A DNA stretch of 64,000 bases from Anaerolineales bacterium (lineage in GTDB: Bacteria > Chloroflexota > Anaerolineae > Anaerolineales > UBA11579), in assembly GCA_026129255.1 (NCBI GenBank), contig JAHCIJ010000002.1, forward strand, positions 125,799-189,798, given 5' to 3'. A model generated the notes under the pieces. That model was not told the DNA's origin. It saw nothing but the letters and a program-made list of their open reading frames with translations, and searched no databases. This document shows, one piece after another, positions 1,826 to 54,047 of this stretch (the stretch's first letter is position 1; every line of letters begins with the position of its first letter). The position numbers and the translations under genes were made by a program.

Positions 1826-1852
1826 GTGTCGCCCTAGCGAGGAAAAGGGCAA
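1826..1852 (+). repeat. hairpin repeat, GCCCT/AGGGC subfamily (solo copy)
   Basis: GTGTC-GCCCT-AGCGAGGAAA-AGGGC-AAC. Same 5' box as the copy at 1905. Confidence 0.6.
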
Positions 1853-1904
1853 CTGAAAAGCATGGTTTCTTGACCCCATCGCTGCATTGGAGCACTCTTT
1901 TTTT

Positions 1905-1934
1905 GTGTCGCCCTGAGCAGAGCGAAGGGCATTC
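1905..1934 (+). repeat. hairpin repeat, GCCCT/AGGGC subfamily; left terminal copy flanking GIY-YIG gene 1
   Basis: GTGTC-GCCCT-GAGC-AGA-GCGA-AGGGC-ATTC. Its reverse-complement partner is at 2284..2311. Confidence 0.75.
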
Positions 1935-1957
1935 ATAAGGGCGGTTTATAGATCAAC

Positions 1958-2254
1958 ATGACTGAAGCCTACGTCTACATTCTCGGCAACAAAGGCGGCA
2001 GGCTCTATGTAGGTGTAACCAATGACCTACAGCGTCGCGTGCATGAGCACAAAACTAAAGCCACCCCTGGATATGCCAGCAAGCTAGGCATATCTCGCCT
2101 CTTGTACTTTGAGACCTTCAATCACATTGTCGATGCGATAGCTGCAGAAAAGCAGATCAAGGGCTGGATACGAAGCAAGAAGCTGGATTTAATCCGTCAG
2201 CACAACCCTAAGTTTGAAGATTTAAGTGCTGATTGGTTTGAATCAGACTCCTAA
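1958..2254 (+). CDS. GIY-YIG nuclease family protein (COG2827/URI-type, 98 aa)
   Basis: YVYILGN..GRLYVGVTNDLQRRVHEH...EKQIKGW motifs. Visibly AT-richer than its neighbours. Flanked by inverted repeat copies. Confidence 0.85.
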   Translation: MTEAYVYILGNKGGRLYVGVTNDLQRRVHEHKTKATPGYASKLGISRLLYFETFNHIVDAIAAEKQIKGWIRSKKLDLIRQHNPKFEDLSADWFESDS

Positions 2255-2283
2255 TGGCTTGGTTTTTGAGACCATCCTTGCGG

Positions 2284-2311
2284 GTGCTCTTCGCTGCGCT
2301 CAGGGCGACAC
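2284..2311 (-). repeat. hairpin repeat, GCCCT subfamily, inverted; right terminal copy flanking GIY-YIG gene 1
   Basis: Its reverse complement is GTGTCGCCCTGAGC-GCA-GCGAAG-AGCAC. It matches 1905..1928 except for the 3-nt loop. Confidence 0.75.
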
Positions 2312-5431: not shown

Positions 5432-5540
5432 GGGGATTGCTTCACTCGCTACGCTCGCTCGCAAAGACAAGCACGACCGTCTTTGCGAGGAGAGCTGAAA
5501 GTTGCATATTGATGCAACTTTCAGCCCCGAAGCAATCCCC
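5432..5540. repeat. hairpin repeats, ATTGC/GCAAT subfamily, head-to-head dimer
   Basis: Inverted copy at 5432..5468 (GGGGATTGCTTC...CTCGCAAAGAC), a 10-nt spacer, then direct copy at 5479..5540 (GTCTTTGCGAGGAG-[32-nt inner hairpin]-CCCGAAGCAATCCCC). Confidence 0.8.
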
Positions 5541-12406: not shown

Positions 12407-12415
12407 CACAGGTTT

Positions 12416-12477
12416 GTCATTGCGAGGAGGGCTGAGAGTTGCATGTTCATGCAACTCTCAGCCCCGAAGCAATCCCC
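12416..12477 (+). repeat. hairpin repeat, ATTGC/GCAAT subfamily
   Basis: GTCATTGCGAGGAG-[GCTGAGAGTTGCAT-gttc-ATGCAACTCTCAGC]-CCCGAAGCAATCCCC. Confidence 0.85.
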
Positions 12478-14148: not shown

Positions 14149-14694
14149 ATGGCATCCACACCGCAATCGCAACCCGTCATCAACCTGCGCAGCTACCTGT
14201 CTCTGGTGCTCGTTTCAGGCGCCATCATCCTGCTTGACCAACTCACCAAGGCCTGGGTGCGCGACAACCTGGCCCTCAGCCAGACCTGGATGCCCTGGGA
14301 GCAACTGGCTCCCTATGCGCGCATCGTGCACTGGCAGAACAGCGGCGCCGCCTTCGGCATGTTCCAGAACGCCGGCGCCTTTTTCGCCGTGCTGGCCATC
14401 CTCGTGGCAGGCATGATCATCTACTACTTCCCGCGCCTGGAGCCTGGCGACTGGGCCGTGCGCCTGGGCATGAGCCTGCAGTTGGGCGGGGCGCTCGGCA
14501 ACCTGATCGACCGTCTGCAGCACGGCCATGTCACCGATTTCATCTCGATCGGCAACTTCCCCATTTGGAATATTGCCGATGCCGCCATCACCTGCGGTGT
14601 GGCCGTCATGATCCTGGATATGCTCTTCAACCCCACACACAAGAAGCCTGCCGCCACTGCTCCGGTTCACAACGATGACCAAACCTCAAGCTGA
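14149..14694 (+). CDS. lspA: lipoprotein signal peptidase II
   Basis: LDQLTK, NSGAAFGMF, GGALGNLIDR, VTDFI, WNIADAAI. Confidence 0.9.
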   Translation: MASTPQSQPVINLRSYLSLVLVSGAIILLDQLTKAWVRDNLALSQTWMPWEQLAPYARIVHWQNSGAAFGMFQNAGAFFAVLAILVAGMIIYYFPRLEPGDWAVRLGMSLQLGGALGNLIDRLQHGHVTDFISIGNFPIWNIADAAITCGVAVMILDMLFNPTHKKPAATAPVHNDDQTSS

Positions 14695-15688
14695 GCCTGT
14701 AGTGCATGATCTGCAGGTGGCCGCCGGCCCGCAGCGGCTGGACAAGTTCCTGGTAGAGCAGCTGCCAGACTTCTCCCGGGCGCGCCTGCAAGCGCTCATT
14801 AAAGAGGGCCGCGTGCAGGTGGATGGCAAAGCCGCCAGCAAGAGCGGCCAGACGCTGGAAGGGGGCGAGGCGGTGCAAGTGCAGGTGCCGCCTGCCGCGC
14901 CCAGCGAACTGATCCCTGAAGCCATTCCGCTGGATGTGATCTTTGAGAATAACGATGTGCTCATCGTGAACAAGCCCGCTGGCATGGTGGTGCACCCGGC
15001 CGCCGGACACAATACCAGCACCCTCATCCACGCCGCCCTGGCGCACGCCCCGCAGATCCAGGGTGTGGGCGGCGAGCTGCGCCCTGGCCTCGTCCACCGC
15101 TTGGACAAAGACACCTCGGGCCTCATCGTGCTGGCCAAGAATGACGCCGCCCACCACGCCCTGCAGGCCCAGTTCCAGCAGCGCAGCGCACAGAAGACCT
15201 ACATCGCTCTCGTGGATGGCCGCCCCAACACGCCCGAGGGGCGTATTGAGGCCGCCATCGGGCGTGACCTGCGTGAGCGCAAGCGCATGAGCGTCGTGCG
15301 CTCTGCCGGCGGCCGCGGCCGCGGCCGTGAAGCGGTGAGCGAGTACCGCACCCTGCACGAGTACGACGATCACACCCTGCTTGAGGTCAATATCCACACC
15401 GGGCGCACCCACCAAATTCGCGTCCACCTCGCTTTCATCCGTTGCCCGGTTGTGGGCGACACCGTCTATGGTCGCCGCAAACCCAGCCTGCCGCTCAAAC
15501 GCCAATTCCTGCATGCCGCCCGCCTCGGGCTGACCCTGCCCGGCGAGACCGAGATGCGCATCTTCAGCGCACCGCTGCCGGCAGACCTGCAGCATGTGCT
15601 GAATAATATGCGTGACAGATTTAGTTGTCATTCTGAGCCAGCAAGCGGCTTGCCGCTTGCGCCAGCGAAGAATCCATCCTCAAGTTGA
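14675..15688 (+). CDS. rluD: RluA/RluD family 23S rRNA pseudouridine synthase; the last ~20 codons are read from a hairpin repeat
   Basis: S4 domain, catalytic HRLDKDTSGL, and HTGRTHQIRVH. The tail SCHSEPASGLPLAPAKNPSSS is encoded by repeat 15627..15675. Confidence 0.9.
   Translation: MTKPQAEPVVHDLQVAAGPQRLDKFLVEQLPDFSRARLQALIKEGRVQVDGKAASKSGQTLEGGEAVQVQVPPAAPSELIPEAIPLDVIFENNDVLIVNKPAGMVVHPAAGHNTSTLIHAALAHAPQIQGVGGELRPGLVHRLDKDTSGLIVLAKNDAAHHALQAQFQQRSAQKTYIALVDGRPNTPEGRIEAAIGRDLRERKRMSVVRSAGGRGRGREAVSEYRTLHEYDDHTLLEVNIHTGRTHQIRVHLAFIRCPVVGDTVYGRRKPSLPLKRQFLHAARLGLTLPGETEMRIFSAPLPADLQHVLNNMRDRFSCHSEPASGLPLAPAKNPSSS
15627..15675 (+). repeat. hairpin repeat, ATTCT/AGAAT subfamily
   Basis: GTC-ATTCT-GAGC-ca-[GCAAGCGG-cttg-CCGCTTGC]-gcca-GCGA-AGAAT-CC. 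Confidence 0.8.
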
Positions 15689-24386: not shown

Positions 24387-24523
24387 GGGGATTGCTTCGT
24401 CGGCGTGCTGCGCACGCCTTACACGGCAGCCGCACAGCATGCGGCTGCCGCCTCGCAATGACGATCCCGGGCGTCATTGCGAGGAGCGCTGCATCCTAAA
24501 ATGCAGCCGACGAAGCAATCCCC
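24387..24523. repeat. hairpin repeats, ATTGC/GCAAT subfamily, head-to-head dimer
   Basis: Inverted copy at 24387..24462 (GGGGATTGCTTCGTC-[two inner hairpins]-CCTCGCAATGAC), a 10-nt spacer, then direct copy at 24473..24523 (GTCATTGCGAGGAG-[GCTGCAT-cctaaa-ATGCAGC]-CGACGAAGCAATCCCC). Confidence 0.85.
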
Positions 24524-26155: not shown

Positions 26156-26297
26156 GTCATTCCGAACGAAGTGAGGAATCCGTTAAGGGTCGGAGTTAGA
26201 CGGTGCTTGTCTGAGAAAGGTCTTGCGCAGATGGGTAGTACGTTTTCGTACGCACAACGGATTCCTCCTCACCGCTGCGCGGCTCGTTCGGAATGAC
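26156..26297. repeat. hairpin repeats, ATTCC/GGAAT subfamily, tail-to-tail pair enclosing 72 nt
   Basis: Direct copy at 26156..26184 (GTCATTCCGAACG-aagt-GAGGAATCCGTT) and inverted copy at 26256..26297 (AACGGATTCCTC...CGTTCGGAATGAC). Confidence 0.8.
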
Positions 26298-26361: not shown

Positions 26362-26378
26362 GGGTTTAAAGCGCGCGC

Positions 26379-26463
26379 GTCATCCTGAGCGGGTAAATCA
26401 AACCACACCAGATCACCGAACCCAGGATAGCGAAGGATCCTTCGCTGCACTCAGGGTGCACGC
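26379..26463. repeat. hairpin repeat, ATCCT/AGGAT subfamily, plus a fused inverted partial copy
   Basis: GTC-ATCCT-GAGCG-[45 nt]-GCGA-AGGAT-CC. The 16-nt perfect palindrome GCGAAGGATCCTTCGC joins it to an inverted GTGCACCCTGAGTGCAGCGAA half. Confidence 0.65.
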
Positions 26464-33814: not shown

Positions 33815-33901
33815 GCTGTAGTTGCTCGCTCGCCGTCATTGCGAGGAGTAGTCGCTGCGTAGCAACGGCAACGGACGAAGCAATCTCCAAACTGTAACTG
33901 C

Positions 33902-33965
33902 ACATTGACGAGGGGATTGCTTCGTCGGCTGCACTTCGTGCAGCACTCCTCGCAATGACGTAGAA
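33902..33965 (+). repeat. 64-nt exact direct repeat, copy 1
   Basis: CTGTAACTGCACATTGACGAGGGGATTGCTTCGTCGGCTGCACTTCGTGCAGCACTCCTCGCAA, identical to 34197..34260. Confidence 0.85.
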
Positions 33966-34196: not shown

Positions 34197-34260
34197 CTGT
34201 AACTGCACATTGACGAGGGGATTGCTTCGTCGGCTGCACTTCGTGCAGCACTCCTCGCAA
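34197..34260 (+). repeat. 64-nt exact direct repeat, copy 2
   Basis: Identical to 33902..33965. Confidence 0.85.
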
Positions 34261-34279
34261 AGACGTAAATTGCCCTTAC

Positions 34280-36195: not shown

Positions 36196-36216
36196 CGTTC
36201 CTCCTAGCTTTTCCTC

Positions 36217-36286
36217 GTCATTGCGAGGAGTATGCAGTGTGATGCATGAAATGCATCACACTGCAACGGACGAAGCAATCTGGTTT
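36217..36286 (+). repeat. hairpin repeat, ATTGC/GCAAT subfamily; terminal copy flanking GIY-YIG gene 2
   Basis: GTCATTGCGAGGAG-[TGCAGTGTGATGCAT-gaa-ATGCATCACACTGCA]-ACGGACGAAGCAATCTGGTTT. Confidence 0.85.
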
Positions 36287-36291
36287 TAAGC

Positions 36292-36588
36292 CTAACTAAA
36301 AAGCTCCGTGTACAAATCTCTCCACTCAGGATTGATACTTTCTATCAGATCAATCTTTCTTTGTCTTGAACCAGCCTTGATCTGCTTCTCTCGGGCAATG
36401 GCGTCAAGCATTTGTTCAGTGGTTTCAAAATACACCAGTTTGTTTACACGATACTTTGCAGTAAACCTTCCTGGCACCTGTTCTCGATGTTCCAAAACCC
36501 TTCGTTGCAGGTTGTTAGTTACACCGGTGTACAGGACTTTATTATGACTATTCGTCATTATGTAAACGCAGGGTTGGTTTTCGCTCAT
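36292..36588 (-). CDS. GIY-YIG nuclease family protein (COG2827/URI-type, 98 aa)
   Basis: Start moved to ATG 36588 (MSENQPCVYIMTN...LYTGVTNNLQRRVLEH...EKQIKAG). The 13 extra N-terminal codons of the track ORF (MSLRAQRSNLVSS) are read from the flanking repeat. AT-richer than its flanks. Confidence 0.85.
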   Translation of the reverse strand: MSENQPCVYIMTNSHNKVLYTGVTNNLQRRVLEHREQVPGRFTAKYRVNKLVYFETTEQMLDAIAREKQIKAGSRQRKIDLIESINPEWRDLYTELFS

Positions 36589-36593
36589 GCTTG

Positions 36594-36625
36594 AAACCAG
36601 ATTGCTTCGCTGCGCTCGCAATGAC
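36594..36625 (-). repeat. hairpin repeat, ATTGC/GCAAT subfamily, inverted; terminal copy flanking GIY-YIG gene 2
   Basis: AAACCAGATTGCTTCG-CTGCG-CTCGCAATGAC. It ends 5 nt from the acd stop codon. Confidence 0.85.
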
Positions 36626-36629
36626 AAGA

Positions 36630-48611: not shown

Positions 48612-49928
48612 ATGGCAACCCCCACGTTGCAACGCTATCTGCAAAGCCTGCCCGACCTGGCGCAGCGCAACCAGCACGGCCTGCAGGCCGCGGAGTTCAC
48701 GCTGCACCGCCTGCAGGCGCTGCTGGCCGCCGTAGGCGACCCGCAGCAAGCGTATCCCAGCCTGCATGTGGCCGGCACCAACGGCAAGGGCTCCGTGTGT
48801 GCCCTGTGTGCTGCGGCCCTGCAGGCGGAGGGCTACCGCGTGGGCCTGTTCACCTCGCCGCACATTCAGGGAGCGCTGCACGGCATTCGTGTGGACGGCC
48901 AACCCGCCAGCGCCGCCGAGTTGCAGGCCGCCTTTGATATGCTCTACCCGCACCTGGCTCAGCAGGAGGGCTGGACCCATTTTGAGATCGTAGTGGCGGT
49001 GATGTTTACCCATTTTGCGCGCGCCGCGGTGCAGGTAGCGGTTATTGAAGTGGGCTTGGGCGGCTTGCTGGATGCTACCAACGTGCTACTGCCCGCCGTT
49101 AGCGTCATTACCCCGATAGACTTTGACCACACTACGATTCTTGGCGATGAACTGGCCCAGATCGCCGTCCACAAGGCAGGCATCATCAAGCCCGGCGTGC
49201 CCGTGGTCAGCGCGCCGCAGCCGCCTGAGGCCGCGGCTGTCATCGCCCCCCAGGCCGCCGCGCAGCATGCCGCGCTCAGCGAAGTGGCCGCCGATTGGCA
49301 GGTGGAGTTGGTCTCGGCAGGTTGGCACGGCCAGCAGTTGCGCCTGCGCCGTCACGACGGTGAATGGCAGGAGTTGCAGCTGGCCCTGCTGGGCAAGTAT
49401 CAACTCACCAATGCGGCCACGGCTTACGCCGCCCTGCACGAGTTGAGCAAGACTGGTTTCAGCATCAGCCCCGCATCCATCCGCGCTGGGTTTGCCGCGG
49501 CGCGCTGGCCGGGCCGCTTCGAGCGGCTGCCGGGGGAGCCGCTCACCATTCTGGATGGCGCCCACAGCCCCGCCGCGGCGCAGGCGCTACGCGAAGCACT
49601 GGACGAATATGCCCCGCAGCAGCCGGTGCTGCTGGTGCTGGGCATCTCGGCCGACAAAGACCTGCACGCCGTGCTGGCTCCGCTGGCGCCGCTCGTGCAG
49701 GCGGTGTATGCCACCCAGTCCGCCCAGCCGCGCGCCATGCCCGCTGCCGCCCTGGCGCAGCAGGTGCAAACCTTCGGCTTGCCCGCACACGCCGTCGAGC
49801 CGCCCGTGGCGGCCTTGCAGGCTGCACGCGCCGCCTGCCCGCCCGGCGGGCTGGTGCTGGTGGCCGGCTCGGTGTTCTTGGTGGATGAAGTGCGTGGGTA
49901 TATAGGACTCGAACCTTCAACCAATTGA
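48612..49928 (+). CDS. folC: bifunctional folylpolyglutamate synthase / dihydrofolate synthase
   Basis: P-loop HVAGTNGKGS, IEVGLGG..DATN, and the Mur ligase C-terminal domain. Confidence 0.9.
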   Translation: MATPTLQRYLQSLPDLAQRNQHGLQAAEFTLHRLQALLAAVGDPQQAYPSLHVAGTNGKGSVCALCAAALQAEGYRVGLFTSPHIQGALHGIRVDGQPASAAELQAAFDMLYPHLAQQEGWTHFEIVVAVMFTHFARAAVQVAVIEVGLGGLLDATNVLLPAVSVITPIDFDHTTILGDELAQIAVHKAGIIKPGVPVVSAPQPPEAAAVIAPQAAAQHAALSEVAADWQVELVSAGWHGQQLRLRRHDGEWQELQLALLGKYQLTNAATAYAALHELSKTGFSISPASIRAGFAAARWPGRFERLPGEPLTILDGAHSPAAAQALREALDEYAPQQPVLLVLGISADKDLHAVLAPLAPLVQAVYATQSAQPRAMPAAALAQQVQTFGLPAHAVEPPVAALQAARAACPPGGLVLVAGSVFLVDEVRGYIGLEPSTN

Positions 49929-49950
49929 TGTAGGTTCGAGTCCTCATTTT
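49904..49950 (+). terminator. folC terminator: 13-bp perfect hairpin whose arms resemble a tRNA T-arm
   Basis: AGGACTCGAACCT-[15 nt]-AGGTTCGAGTCCT, then CATTTT. The left arm and loop encode the last folC codons and the stop. Confidence 0.6.
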
Positions 49951-49974
49951 AGGACCCACCCATATAACCTCATC

Positions 49975-50001
49975 GTGCATCCCGAGCGTAGCGAGGGATC
50001 C
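49975..50001 (+). repeat. hairpin repeat, ATCCC/GGGAT subfamily (minimal copy)
   Basis: GTGC-ATCCC-GAGCG-ta-GCGA-GGGAT-CC. Confidence 0.7.
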
Positions 50002-50050
50002 TTACTGTGGCATAAATAACTCAACTCAACGTAGAAGACCTGCCAGCAAA

Positions 50051-53946: not shown

Positions 53947-53999
53947 ATGTGGGCAGTAGGCACATGCGGTGCTTCCACCGCATGTGCCTTTCCCTAGCC

Positions 54000-54047
54000 G
54001 TCATTGTGAGGAGTGCTGCACGAAGTGCAGCCGACGAAGCAATCTCC
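54000..54047 (+). repeat. hairpin repeat, ATTGC/GCAAT subfamily
   Basis: GTCATTGTGAGGAG-[TGCTGCAC-gaa-GTGCAGC]-CGACGAAGCAATCTCC. Same inner hairpin as the copies at 33922 and 34217. Confidence 0.85.

Follow-up and report, generated by a model that had tools for sequence, protein, structure and literature searches.

A 64,000-nt stretch of an Anaerolineales genome (hereafter the window; assembly GCA_026129255.1, contig JAHCIJ010000002.1) contains a small cassette in which a gene for a 98-amino-acid single-domain GIY-YIG nuclease (1958..2254 on the + strand, stop codon included) is bracketed by inverted copies of an oriented DNA hairpin. This locus is probably a cassette of the Ssn type, and the hairpins would be the recognition element of the very enzyme that they flank, related to the repeats called SRM in that family. 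The architecture itself has been known since 2025, when it was described as "NTS/SRM-ssnA-NTS/SRM" (Chenal et al., Nat Commun 2025; PMC11893778), and what we report is an uncharacterised Ssn member with a structurally variant repeat.

Work on the Ssn family started from a subset of the Neisseria dRS3 repeats named NTS (CGTCATTCCCGCGMAVGCGGGAATCYRG). The SsnA protein of N. meningitidis is a 94-amino-acid single-domain GIY-YIG protein (CDD cd10448, GIY-YIG_unchar_3) that binds the hairpin in single-stranded DNA (ssDNA), on one strand only, and cuts a few nt 5' of it; it is inactive on double-stranded DNA (dsDNA), and RNA of the same sequence is neither bound nor cut. The C that follows the palindrome weighs most for binding and the three bases that precede it for cleavage, the hairpin loop is dispensable or extendable, and the mutations Y6A, Y17A and E64A abolish cleavage. 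In N. meningitidis the enzyme reduces transformation by NTS-bearing DNA, and each Ssn homologue tested cut ssDNA beside its own flanking hairpin, with partial cross-specificity. Homologues of ssnA across bacteria are flanked by repeats, 71% having one nearby and 42% having them on both sides; family criteria were a length below 150 amino acids, a blastp match to N. meningitidis SsnA (CAX49033.1) with E < 1e-10 and at least 75% coverage, a top CDD assignment to cd10448, and at least one SRM within 500 bp on both sides (all from PMC11893778).

The association between the nuclease gene and the hairpins extends far beyond the window. We analysed 80 loci that encode relatives of the focal protein at 46-62% identity and that come from more than 10 phyla, their hosts including Chloroflexota, Planctomycetota, Cyanobacteria, Ignavibacteria, Acidobacteriota, Deltaproteobacteria, the Candidate Phyla Radiation (CPR) and other phyla. 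We defined as a strict unit an xGTC head followed by an exact 5-bp stem that encloses GAG...CGA. Strict units reach a density of 5.1/kb within 150 nt of the gene, against 0.125/kb elsewhere in the same loci and 0.004/kb in a control of 489 kb of Anaerolineales-rich loci that carry the 3-hydroxyacyl-CoA dehydrogenase gene hbd, the left neighbour of the focal cassette, and lack the nuclease gene. A strict unit lies within 500 nt of the gene in 62 of the 80 loci and on both sides in 47, while most of the other 18 have near-variants that the strict scan missed. Median distances between gene and unit are 42 nt upstream and 34 nt downstream, and the heads point outward (nearest unit on the + strand upstream and on the - strand downstream) in 25 of 39 loci with units on both sides. 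This 40-fold to more than 1000-fold enrichment over 80 loci strongly supports the conclusion that gene and repeats belong together and are not chance neighbours. An earlier note on this DNA had proposed such a pairing beyond chance proximity, and the proposal is borne out both by the enrichment and by the experiments on Ssn enzymes (PMC11893778).

The same densities bear on the simplest alternative, namely that the hairpins are ordinary intrinsic terminators or generic intergenic repetitive extragenic palindromic (REP) elements among which the gene happened to land. The focal hairpins are indeed intergenic, lying after hbd and before a convergent lipoprotein gene, and REP-like repeats tagged with CGTC or TGTC are widespread. 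However, a background of 0.004 units/kb in the control loci against 5.1/kb beside the genes is hard to reconcile with a random landing, and a conserved unpaired head, a conserved tail and a fixed orientation relative to the gene are not properties of terminators. Moreover, no stem followed by a T tract occurs on either strand of 1600-2600, where the sole T run precedes a hairpin. The earlier note had named beforehand, as the outcome that would speak against its proposal, that the terminal repeats be ordinary terminator hairpins; nothing terminator-like was found in 1600-2600, and we regard this explanation as very improbable. A search of the same 1600-2600 interval for promoter-like sites was also negative.

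As for generic repeats, the CGTC-tagged REPs include Neisseria dRS3 and Rickettsia RPE (Di Nocera et al., BMC Genomics 2013; PMC3733652). No dedicated enzyme could be identified for them in that study, and one has since been provided for the NTS subset of dRS3 (PMC11893778). As described in prose there, these elements resemble our units in their unpaired CGTC/TGTC head (TGTC and CCTC tags being allowed), their stems starting with A-T pairs, their short unpaired tail, their intergenic location and the frequency of head-to-head dimers. They differ in having 8-9 fully paired bp of which the first two are A-T, a 4-5 nt loop and a CCA tail, whereas the units described here have 5 bp, a G.A/A.G step and 2 further bp, a 3-nt GNA loop or a long insert, a tail that is mostly CTC and, at the focal locus, a stem starting with G; no CGTC-tagged family was reported from Chloroflexi in that study.

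The repeat itself has a well-defined anatomy. The consensus of 199 units consists of a T-G-T-C head, a 5-bp stem with the 5' half A-[T/C]-[T/C/G]-C-[T/C], a GAG, an inner element, a CGA, the 5 complementary nt and a C, the tail consensus being CTC. The head is TGTC in 90% of units and CGTC in 7%, and units of the window have one or the other. We read GAG opposite CGA as a tandem of G.A and A.G pairs, presumably of the sheared type, next to which stands a G-C pair. In its shortest form the inner element is C-GNA-G, and the core therefore includes GCGNAGC, a classic stable DNA mini-hairpin. The inner element is often replaced by a long perfect stem, as at 36216-36279 and 15626-15673 of the window, in locus L006 and in many other loci, and such variable inner stems fit the published finding that the loop of an Ssn hairpin can be swapped or lengthened. 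When hairpins within 150 nt of a gene are collected by their exact stem and GAG...CGA core, with no head imposed, GTC precedes the stem in 126 of the 142 and C follows it in 134, and these are the positions found critical for cleavage and for binding, respectively (PMC11893778).

At the focal locus, the upstream hairpin (1905..1930, +; GTGTCGCCCTGAGCAGAGCGAAGGGC) is of this G.A type and agrees with the consensus anatomy, with a G-TGTC head at 1905-1909, a stem formed by GCCCT (1910-1914) and AGGGC (1926-1930), and the core GAGC-AGA-GCGA at 1915-1925. The downstream unit (2286..2311, -; GTGTCGCCCTGAGCGCAGCGAAGAGC) is inverted, and reads on its own strand GTGTC-GCCCT-GAGCGCAGCGA-AGAGC. Two 23-nt copies, GTGTCGCCCTGAGCAGAGCGAAG at 1905-1927 on the left and CTTCGCTGCGCTCAGGGCGACAC at 2289-2311 on the right, match at 21 of 23 positions, both differences falling inside the 3-nt loop, and they share the exact 14-mer GTGTCGCCCTGAGC, which is found in these two copies only within the 64 kb. 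The earlier note had described a 24-nt terminal inverted repeat, with its right copy at 2284-2311, that differed only in a 3-nt loop. The inverted repeat is present and the differences are where they had been placed, but the right copy occupies 2289-2311 and is 23 nt long, a shift of no more than 5 nt, and the repeat extends further than had been claimed, reaching 41 nt at 78% identity. From head to ORF (open reading frame) edge, alignment of one flank with the reverse complement of the other gives 40 identities over 53 and 57 positions, so that the 5' leader between hairpin and start codon (1931..1957, +) has an inverted counterpart in the 3' trailer (2255..2285, +). Between the upstream unit and the start codon there are 27 nt, and between the stop codon and the downstream unit 31 nt. 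As the earlier note had observed, both cassettes of the window have the same orientation, with the GTC heads outermost and the 3' halves toward the gene.

The upstream hairpin is the second unit of a two-unit direct array. The first unit (1826..1852, +) is decayed, with a GTGTC head, a GCCCT/AGGGC stem and a degenerate core (AGCGAGGAAA). Its positions 1826-1835 (GTGTCGCCCT) repeat the 10-mer at 1905-1914 exactly, in agreement with the third copy that the earlier note had recognised, and the alignment of the two units scores 26 against 12.9 +/- 2.0 for shuffled sequences. The 5-bp stem of this first unit, between 1831-1835 and 1848-1852, has a predicted energy of -4.1 kcal/mol, no better than shuffles. 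The spacer that follows (1853..1904, +) ends in a T run and includes a segment (1864-1899) with weak similarity to the 3' trailer (2257-2290). This had been described as a direct repeat of about 35 nt between 1864..1899 and 2260..2290; we find a 21-nt core with 17 identities and a score of 20 against 11.5 +/- 2.2, which 0.5% of shuffles reach. The similarity thus looks real but is marginal, and is the weakest of the earlier claims; a quasi-palindromic GGTTT...AAACC segment may account for some of it.

The arrangement of these flanks would also suit a role at the RNA level, in which hairpins in the untranslated regions, or a 5'-3' panhandle, stabilise or autoregulate the ssn mRNA, and RNA could be the substrate. 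The units stand close to the gene ends, both here and by the medians over the 80 loci, and about 40 of 55 nt could pair between the two flanks, which would let a transcript close on itself. Tandem G.A pairs are stable in RNA as well, which counts for such a role. Against it, SsnA of N. meningitidis is inactive on RNA of the same sequence (PMC11893778), the downstream copy would be present in the mRNA as the C/T-mismatched complement and not as the G.A strand, most units of the window are orphans distant from any ssn gene, and no Rfam family matches. We consider an RNA-level role improbable. A separate candidate, an RNA gene at this place, was dropped, as Rfam gave nothing credible (gathering thresholds for the whole window, E <= 10 for 1780-2360) and ARAGORN found no tRNA or tmRNA.

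Turning to the protein, the focal product matches the Pfam GIY-YIG domain PF01541 over residues 4-75 (E 1.5e-12) and has no other domain. An earlier claim that this 98-residue ORF is about 45% identical to a second one in the window proved correct: the paralog, also of 98 amino acids (36295..36588, -), is 45% identical to it (42/93, E 2e-28). Residues Y7, Y17, G19, R27, H31, E64 and N83 are invariant in an alignment of 14 sequences, and a profile of the two window proteins and 12 relatives retrieves 9,957 clusters (50% identity) at E <= 1e-10. Pfam and NCBIfam models cannot separate GIY-YIG subfamilies, and PADLOC and PHROGs scans returned marginal matches to the GIY-YIG domain alone, among them a PHROG homing endonuclease (E 6e-4). 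The closest solved structures are those of the stand-alone UPF0213/YhbQ proteins BH0048 (PDB 1zg2; E 7e-6) and EF2693 (PDB 1ywl; E 0.04), the only ones detectable by sequence. These share size and fold class with the focal protein but match it only distantly, far more weakly than does the NTS-associated homologue described below, and we know of no association of UPF0213/YhbQ proteins with hairpin repeats. GIY-YIG homing endonucleases of the I-TevI type have in common with our gene the catalytic domain and the character of a compositionally foreign insert, but they possess a separate DNA-binding domain and cut dsDNA, whereas the focal protein is a bare 98-residue domain. A homing endonuclease was also tried as a candidate identity and rejected: TIGR01453, the NCBIfam model of group I intron endonucleases, has a cut-off of 56 bits and reaches 17.8 here, and no second domain is present.

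The likeness to the Ssn family includes both protein and repeats. The protein is a single GIY-YIG domain of about 95-100 amino acids with the conserved Tyr, Tyr and Glu, here Y7/Y17/E64 against Y6/Y17/E64 in SsnA, an equivalence drawn from motif and numbering and not from an alignment to SsnA. The repeats are inverted, oriented hairpins on both sides of the gene, with an unpaired YGTC head, a stem starting with A-T/C and a C after the stem, and in both systems orphan copies are dispersed in the genome and loop length is free. A further link comes from a genome scan for exact NTS copies, which yielded 120 loci. Two of them carry homologues of the focal protein, and neither is from Neisseria: L249, from a gammaproteobacterial metagenome-assembled genome (MAG), has one exact canonical NTS on each side of the gene with the heads outward, and L248, from an Anaerolineales MAG, has an exact NTS beside the homologous ORF. 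The L248 protein is 42% identical to the focal one (88 amino acids, E 1e-23) and 44% to the paralog (E 2e-28), which is about as high as the identity between the two window paralogs. The separation between G.A-type and NTS-type repeats is stark in this sample, in which the NTS-type proteins number only two.

The two kinds of cassette also differ. The published hairpins have a continuous Watson-Crick stem (ATTCCCGC/GCGGGAAT), whereas those described here have 5 bp, then the putative tandem G.A/A.G, then GC-GNA-GC. The host is a member of the Anaerolineales, and its genome holds two paralogs that have diverged and have a separate repeat subfamily each; Chloroflexi, paralogs and non-canonical pairs go unmentioned in the main text of the Ssn study (PMC11893778).

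Several points weigh against the assignment to the Ssn family. The SRM regular expression given by Chenal et al. (PMC11893778), HGTCWYN(0-2)YYVSBRHN(0-5)WNVSBRGN(0-2)RNCYNB, recovers the NTS units of L248 and L249 but has no match in the window or in the related loci L001, L002 and L006, and a single, probably spurious one among the 80 loci. The repeat therefore fails the operational definition of that study. The expression misses it because of the G.A step, as the published NTS, NTSvar and SRM motifs all have Watson-Crick stems. Furthermore, the stem of the focal units begins with G, a position held by A in 99% of units, and if this stem is read as 5 bp the following base is A and not C; the C would be the last stem base or belong to the tail according to whether 5 or 4 bp are counted. 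The downstream unit (2286-2311) has one stem mismatch and folds weakly on its own, and predicted hairpin energies are at most modestly below those of shuffles (z -1.5 to +0.9). For instance, DNA folding of 1902-1934 returns the expected shape, (((((..((...))..))))), at -5.1 kcal/mol (z -1.5), not significantly below shuffles. The nearest-neighbour model gives no credit to sheared G.A pairs or to GNA loops, and since folding is not significantly better than that of shuffles we give the energies no weight for or against. Finally, the ssDNA specificity and the cut site would be extrapolated from proteins whose identity to relatives of the tested enzymes is about 40%. We nevertheless hold the Ssn-type reading to be probable.

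If the focal enzyme behaves like the characterised Neisseria and Wolbachia enzymes, with which we argue by homology, it would bind the hairpin in single-stranded DNA alone, and on just one strand, the one with the sequence TGTC-stem-GAG...CGA-stem. Occasions for this may arise during replication, repair, conjugation or transformation, or with ssDNA phages. Sequence would be read at the unpaired GTC head and at the base that follows the stem on its 3' side, and the cut would fall about 3 nt 5' of the YGTC head, a geometry derived from the oligonucleotide lengths in the published assays (PMC11893778): on the + strand, within the T run to the left of 1906; on the - strand, immediately to the right of 2310. 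As the units are inverted, each strand of the cassette would therefore have one cleavable site, located at its own 5' boundary. In the cell, such an activity may, as in Neisseria, limit how far ssDNA with these repeats is taken up or recombined, or it may spread and maintain the repeats.

The focal gene has a long history at its present site. The same cassette lies between hbd and the lipoprotein gene in two other Anaerolineales MAGs, L001 and L002 (87% protein identity), and directly upstream of gatB in a third, L006 (73% identity). Comparison with L001 and L002 gives a ratio of nonsynonymous to synonymous divergence (dN/dS) of 0.04-0.05, with dS of 1.4-1.7, above that of the neighbouring hbd (0.56-0.63), and the gene is thus under purifying selection. 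Its composition is foreign. G+C content (GC) is 46.8%, and 53.5% at third codon positions (GC3), against 61.4% for the window and a GC3 of about 80% for hbd and gatB; the second ssn gene is lower still (41.8%, GC3 44%), and low GC also characterises the focal-gene orthologues, where it has persisted after a dS of about 1.4. A check of composition had been suggested by the earlier note, as had a search for empty sites in relatives. Such an empty site is found in L088, a more distant relative (Hbd 74%, GatB 80% identity) where dinB and hbd are followed by 87 nt and gatB, gene and hairpin being both absent; none of the 80 hbd loci of relatives at up to 74% identity, L088 among them, contains the gene or the cassette. 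As gene and hairpins are absent together, they were gained or lost together. The gene is compositionally foreign, yet long kept and constrained.

At the orthologous loci we also observed tandem arrays with a period of about 65-75 nt, comprising about 7 copies in L002 (L002:3505-3990; CP075367.1) and 2 in L001 (L001:3880-3975). In each copy the hairpin and the 5' leader run on into the start of the ssn ORF for ~15 nt (...CAACATGGCTGAAGCCT), after which comes the next GTGTC head, and the G...C variant of the window is present in one of the L002 copies. Within the ORF, the region of the GIY motif (A-Y-V-Y-I-L; 1967-1987 in the window, 4010-4030 in L001/L002) is encoded by GCCTACGTCTACATTCT, in which a CGTC tag is followed after 3 nt by ATTCT, the most frequent 5' stem half. 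This may be coincidence, or a source of microhomology for array junctions. In other Chloroflexota, long arrays of alternating or same-sense units stand by ssn genes (L049:5290-6220, L010:4536-5658, L029:5328-6330, L065:4854-5954); these resemble bacterial interspersed mosaic elements (BIMEs), with no obvious gene remnants in the spacers.

Such features raise the possibility that the cassette is a mobile selfish unit, comparable to an insertion sequence, a REPtron or a free-standing homing endonuclease, a view that is compatible with the Ssn assignment and adds a purpose to it. The nuclease would nick at the hairpins, and repair or replication would copy hairpin-gene-hairpin units and solo hairpins to new sites. 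Terminal inverted repeats about 55 nt long that extend up to the ORF on either side, two ssn genes far below genome GC, as are the orthologues of the focal one, the joint absence of gene and hairpins from the syntenic L088 and from the 80 hbd loci, and the tandem arrays that include the ORF start in L002, with further arrays in L049 and L010, all point in this direction. So do the best relatives outside the clade, which come from other phyla at about 60% identity, and the orphan hairpins of the type that flanks paralog 2, present at at least 11 sites in the 64 kb. The Ssn authors themselves called the architecture "identical to" that of insertion sequences and raised the option of an element, selfish or domesticated, that disperses its repeats (PMC11893778). 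On the other side, the cassette has stayed at one chromosomal site through a dS of about 1.4 and under strong purifying selection, the window holds no near-identical second copy, its paralogs being 45% identical, and we found neither a target-site duplication nor a filled/empty pair of close strains. A single cut per strand at opposite ends excises nothing by itself, and we know of no covalent strand-transfer chemistry for a GIY-YIG hydrolase. REPtrons offer a further comparison: in those systems, too, one gene, encoding a REP-associated tyrosine transposase (RAYT), is bracketed by inverted hairpins (GTAG-tagged REPs or REPINs) that are also dispersed as orphans and dimers, and the enzyme reads a hairpin plus an adjacent unpaired tetranucleotide in ssDNA, but theirs is an IS200/IS605-like Y1 HUH tyrosine transposase and the tag is GTAG, against a GIY-YIG hydrolase and YGTC here. 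Composition, joint gain or loss, dispersed orphans and tandem arrays favour a mobile past, whereas the long stay at one site argues against frequent movement, and on balance we hold the selfish mobile unit to be possible but unlikely.

The second cassette of the window (36216..36626, -), used here for comparison, has the same layout as the focal Ssn-type cassette with another stem. The ssn paralog (36292-36588, -) is flanked by an ATTGC-type hairpin with a long inserted stem on one side (36216-36279, +) and by a minimal ATTGC-type hairpin on the other (36601-36626, -). When the window was surveyed with relaxed criteria, the GCCCT type proved confined to the three copies of the focal locus, with no orphan, whereas the ATTGC type occurs at the sites counted above, often as head-to-head or tail-to-tail pairs. 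Its orphans, of the form CGTC-ATTGC-GAGGAG-variable stem-CGACGAAGCAAT-CCCC, are at 5432-5468(-), 5478-5536(+), 12415-12473(+), 24391-24463(-), 24472-24519(+), 33834-33884(+), 33916-33960(-), 34221-34265(-) and 53999-54043(+), those at 5432/5478 and 24391/24472 being paired head to head and those at 33834/33916 tail to tail.

The earlier note had assigned to each paralog a cognate repeat subfamily. The window census agrees with this, and so does the genome PEA bin13, where each of two paralogs is likewise bracketed by a stem of its own (ATTCC at L022, ATCCT at L043). Among 25 heads-outward loci, the same stem is found on both flanks in 14, against 6.1 expected, and different stems in 11. The part of the claim that fares less well is the tracking of protein by stem, which is weak: same-stem pairs share 62.2% protein identity against 60.4% (51 loci, permutation p = 0.05), a difference that is confounded by host relatedness. 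Cognate specificity at the level of the 5-bp stem is thus plausible, if weakly supported.

These observations can be brought together, tentatively and with more doubt than confidence, in a single scenario. The G.A hairpin would define a large, undescribed specificity class of Ssn enzymes, spread over more than 10 phyla and missed by the SRM motif. The window would contain two orthogonal pairs, namely paralog 2 with the dispersed ATTGC type and the focal enzyme with the GCCCT type confined to its flanks, and the cassettes would be, or would recently have been, mobile, leaving behind arrays that include the 5' end of the ORF.

To our knowledge, Ssn enzymes are the only site-specific endonucleases exclusive to ssDNA, and they are under development as tools. 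Each new pair of enzyme and hairpin is a potential new ssDNA-cutting specificity, and a genome whose two paralogs are divergent and differ in their repeat subfamily provides a natural test of orthogonality and candidate orthogonal pairs. The focal locus and its 80 relatives show that a large part of the family uses a G.A-paired hairpin that the published motif misses, and the estimates of 71% and 42% for flanking repeats therefore probably fall short of the true frequencies. The idea of a mobile element is kept alive by the GC-poor genes and by gene and repeats occurring, or being missing, together.

The hairpins also explain spurious N- and C-terminal extensions of many database entries named 'GIY-YIG nuclease family protein'. 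Several relatives (P0125, P0128, P0133, P0191, P0263 and others) are 120-200 amino acids long only since the ORF call crosses the flanking hairpins. The heads and tails encoded by these hairpins carry peptides such as SFTSFRMT, VIPTAGRNL and SLRSGWQ, which are annotation artefacts and a possible marker of the repeat.

As for the surroundings, the focal region is bounded on the left by the stop codon of hbd (966-1814) and on the right by a convergent lipoprotein-like ORF and gatB. The ssn cassette thus lies near gatB in the window, and adjoins it in L006. In the hbd-gatB spacer of L088 (L088:3521-3615), we noted a ~42-nt imperfect tandem duplicate of the 5' end of gatB (ATGCCCACCGATGAAGCCGTCATAGGCCCGGAAACCCA vs ATGCCTACCTACGAAGCCGTCATAGGGCTGGAAACCCA); the duplicated segment includes CGTCAT, and gatB of the window starts ...GAAGTTGTCATCGG. 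Single units with other stems (ATTCT, ATTCC, ATCCT, ACCCT-like and ATCCC) are located at 15626-15673(+), 26255-26297(-), 26378-26438(+) with 26438-26462(-), and 49973-50003(+). Just upstream of the last of these, 49905-49950 contains a perfect 13-nt inverted repeat (AGGACTCGAACCT/AGGTTCGAGTCCT) that resembles a tRNA T arm, with no tRNA called there by ARAGORN. At its 3' end the long ORF 14675-15688 overlaps with the unit at 15626, and the called protein would consequently finish in hairpin-encoded residues.

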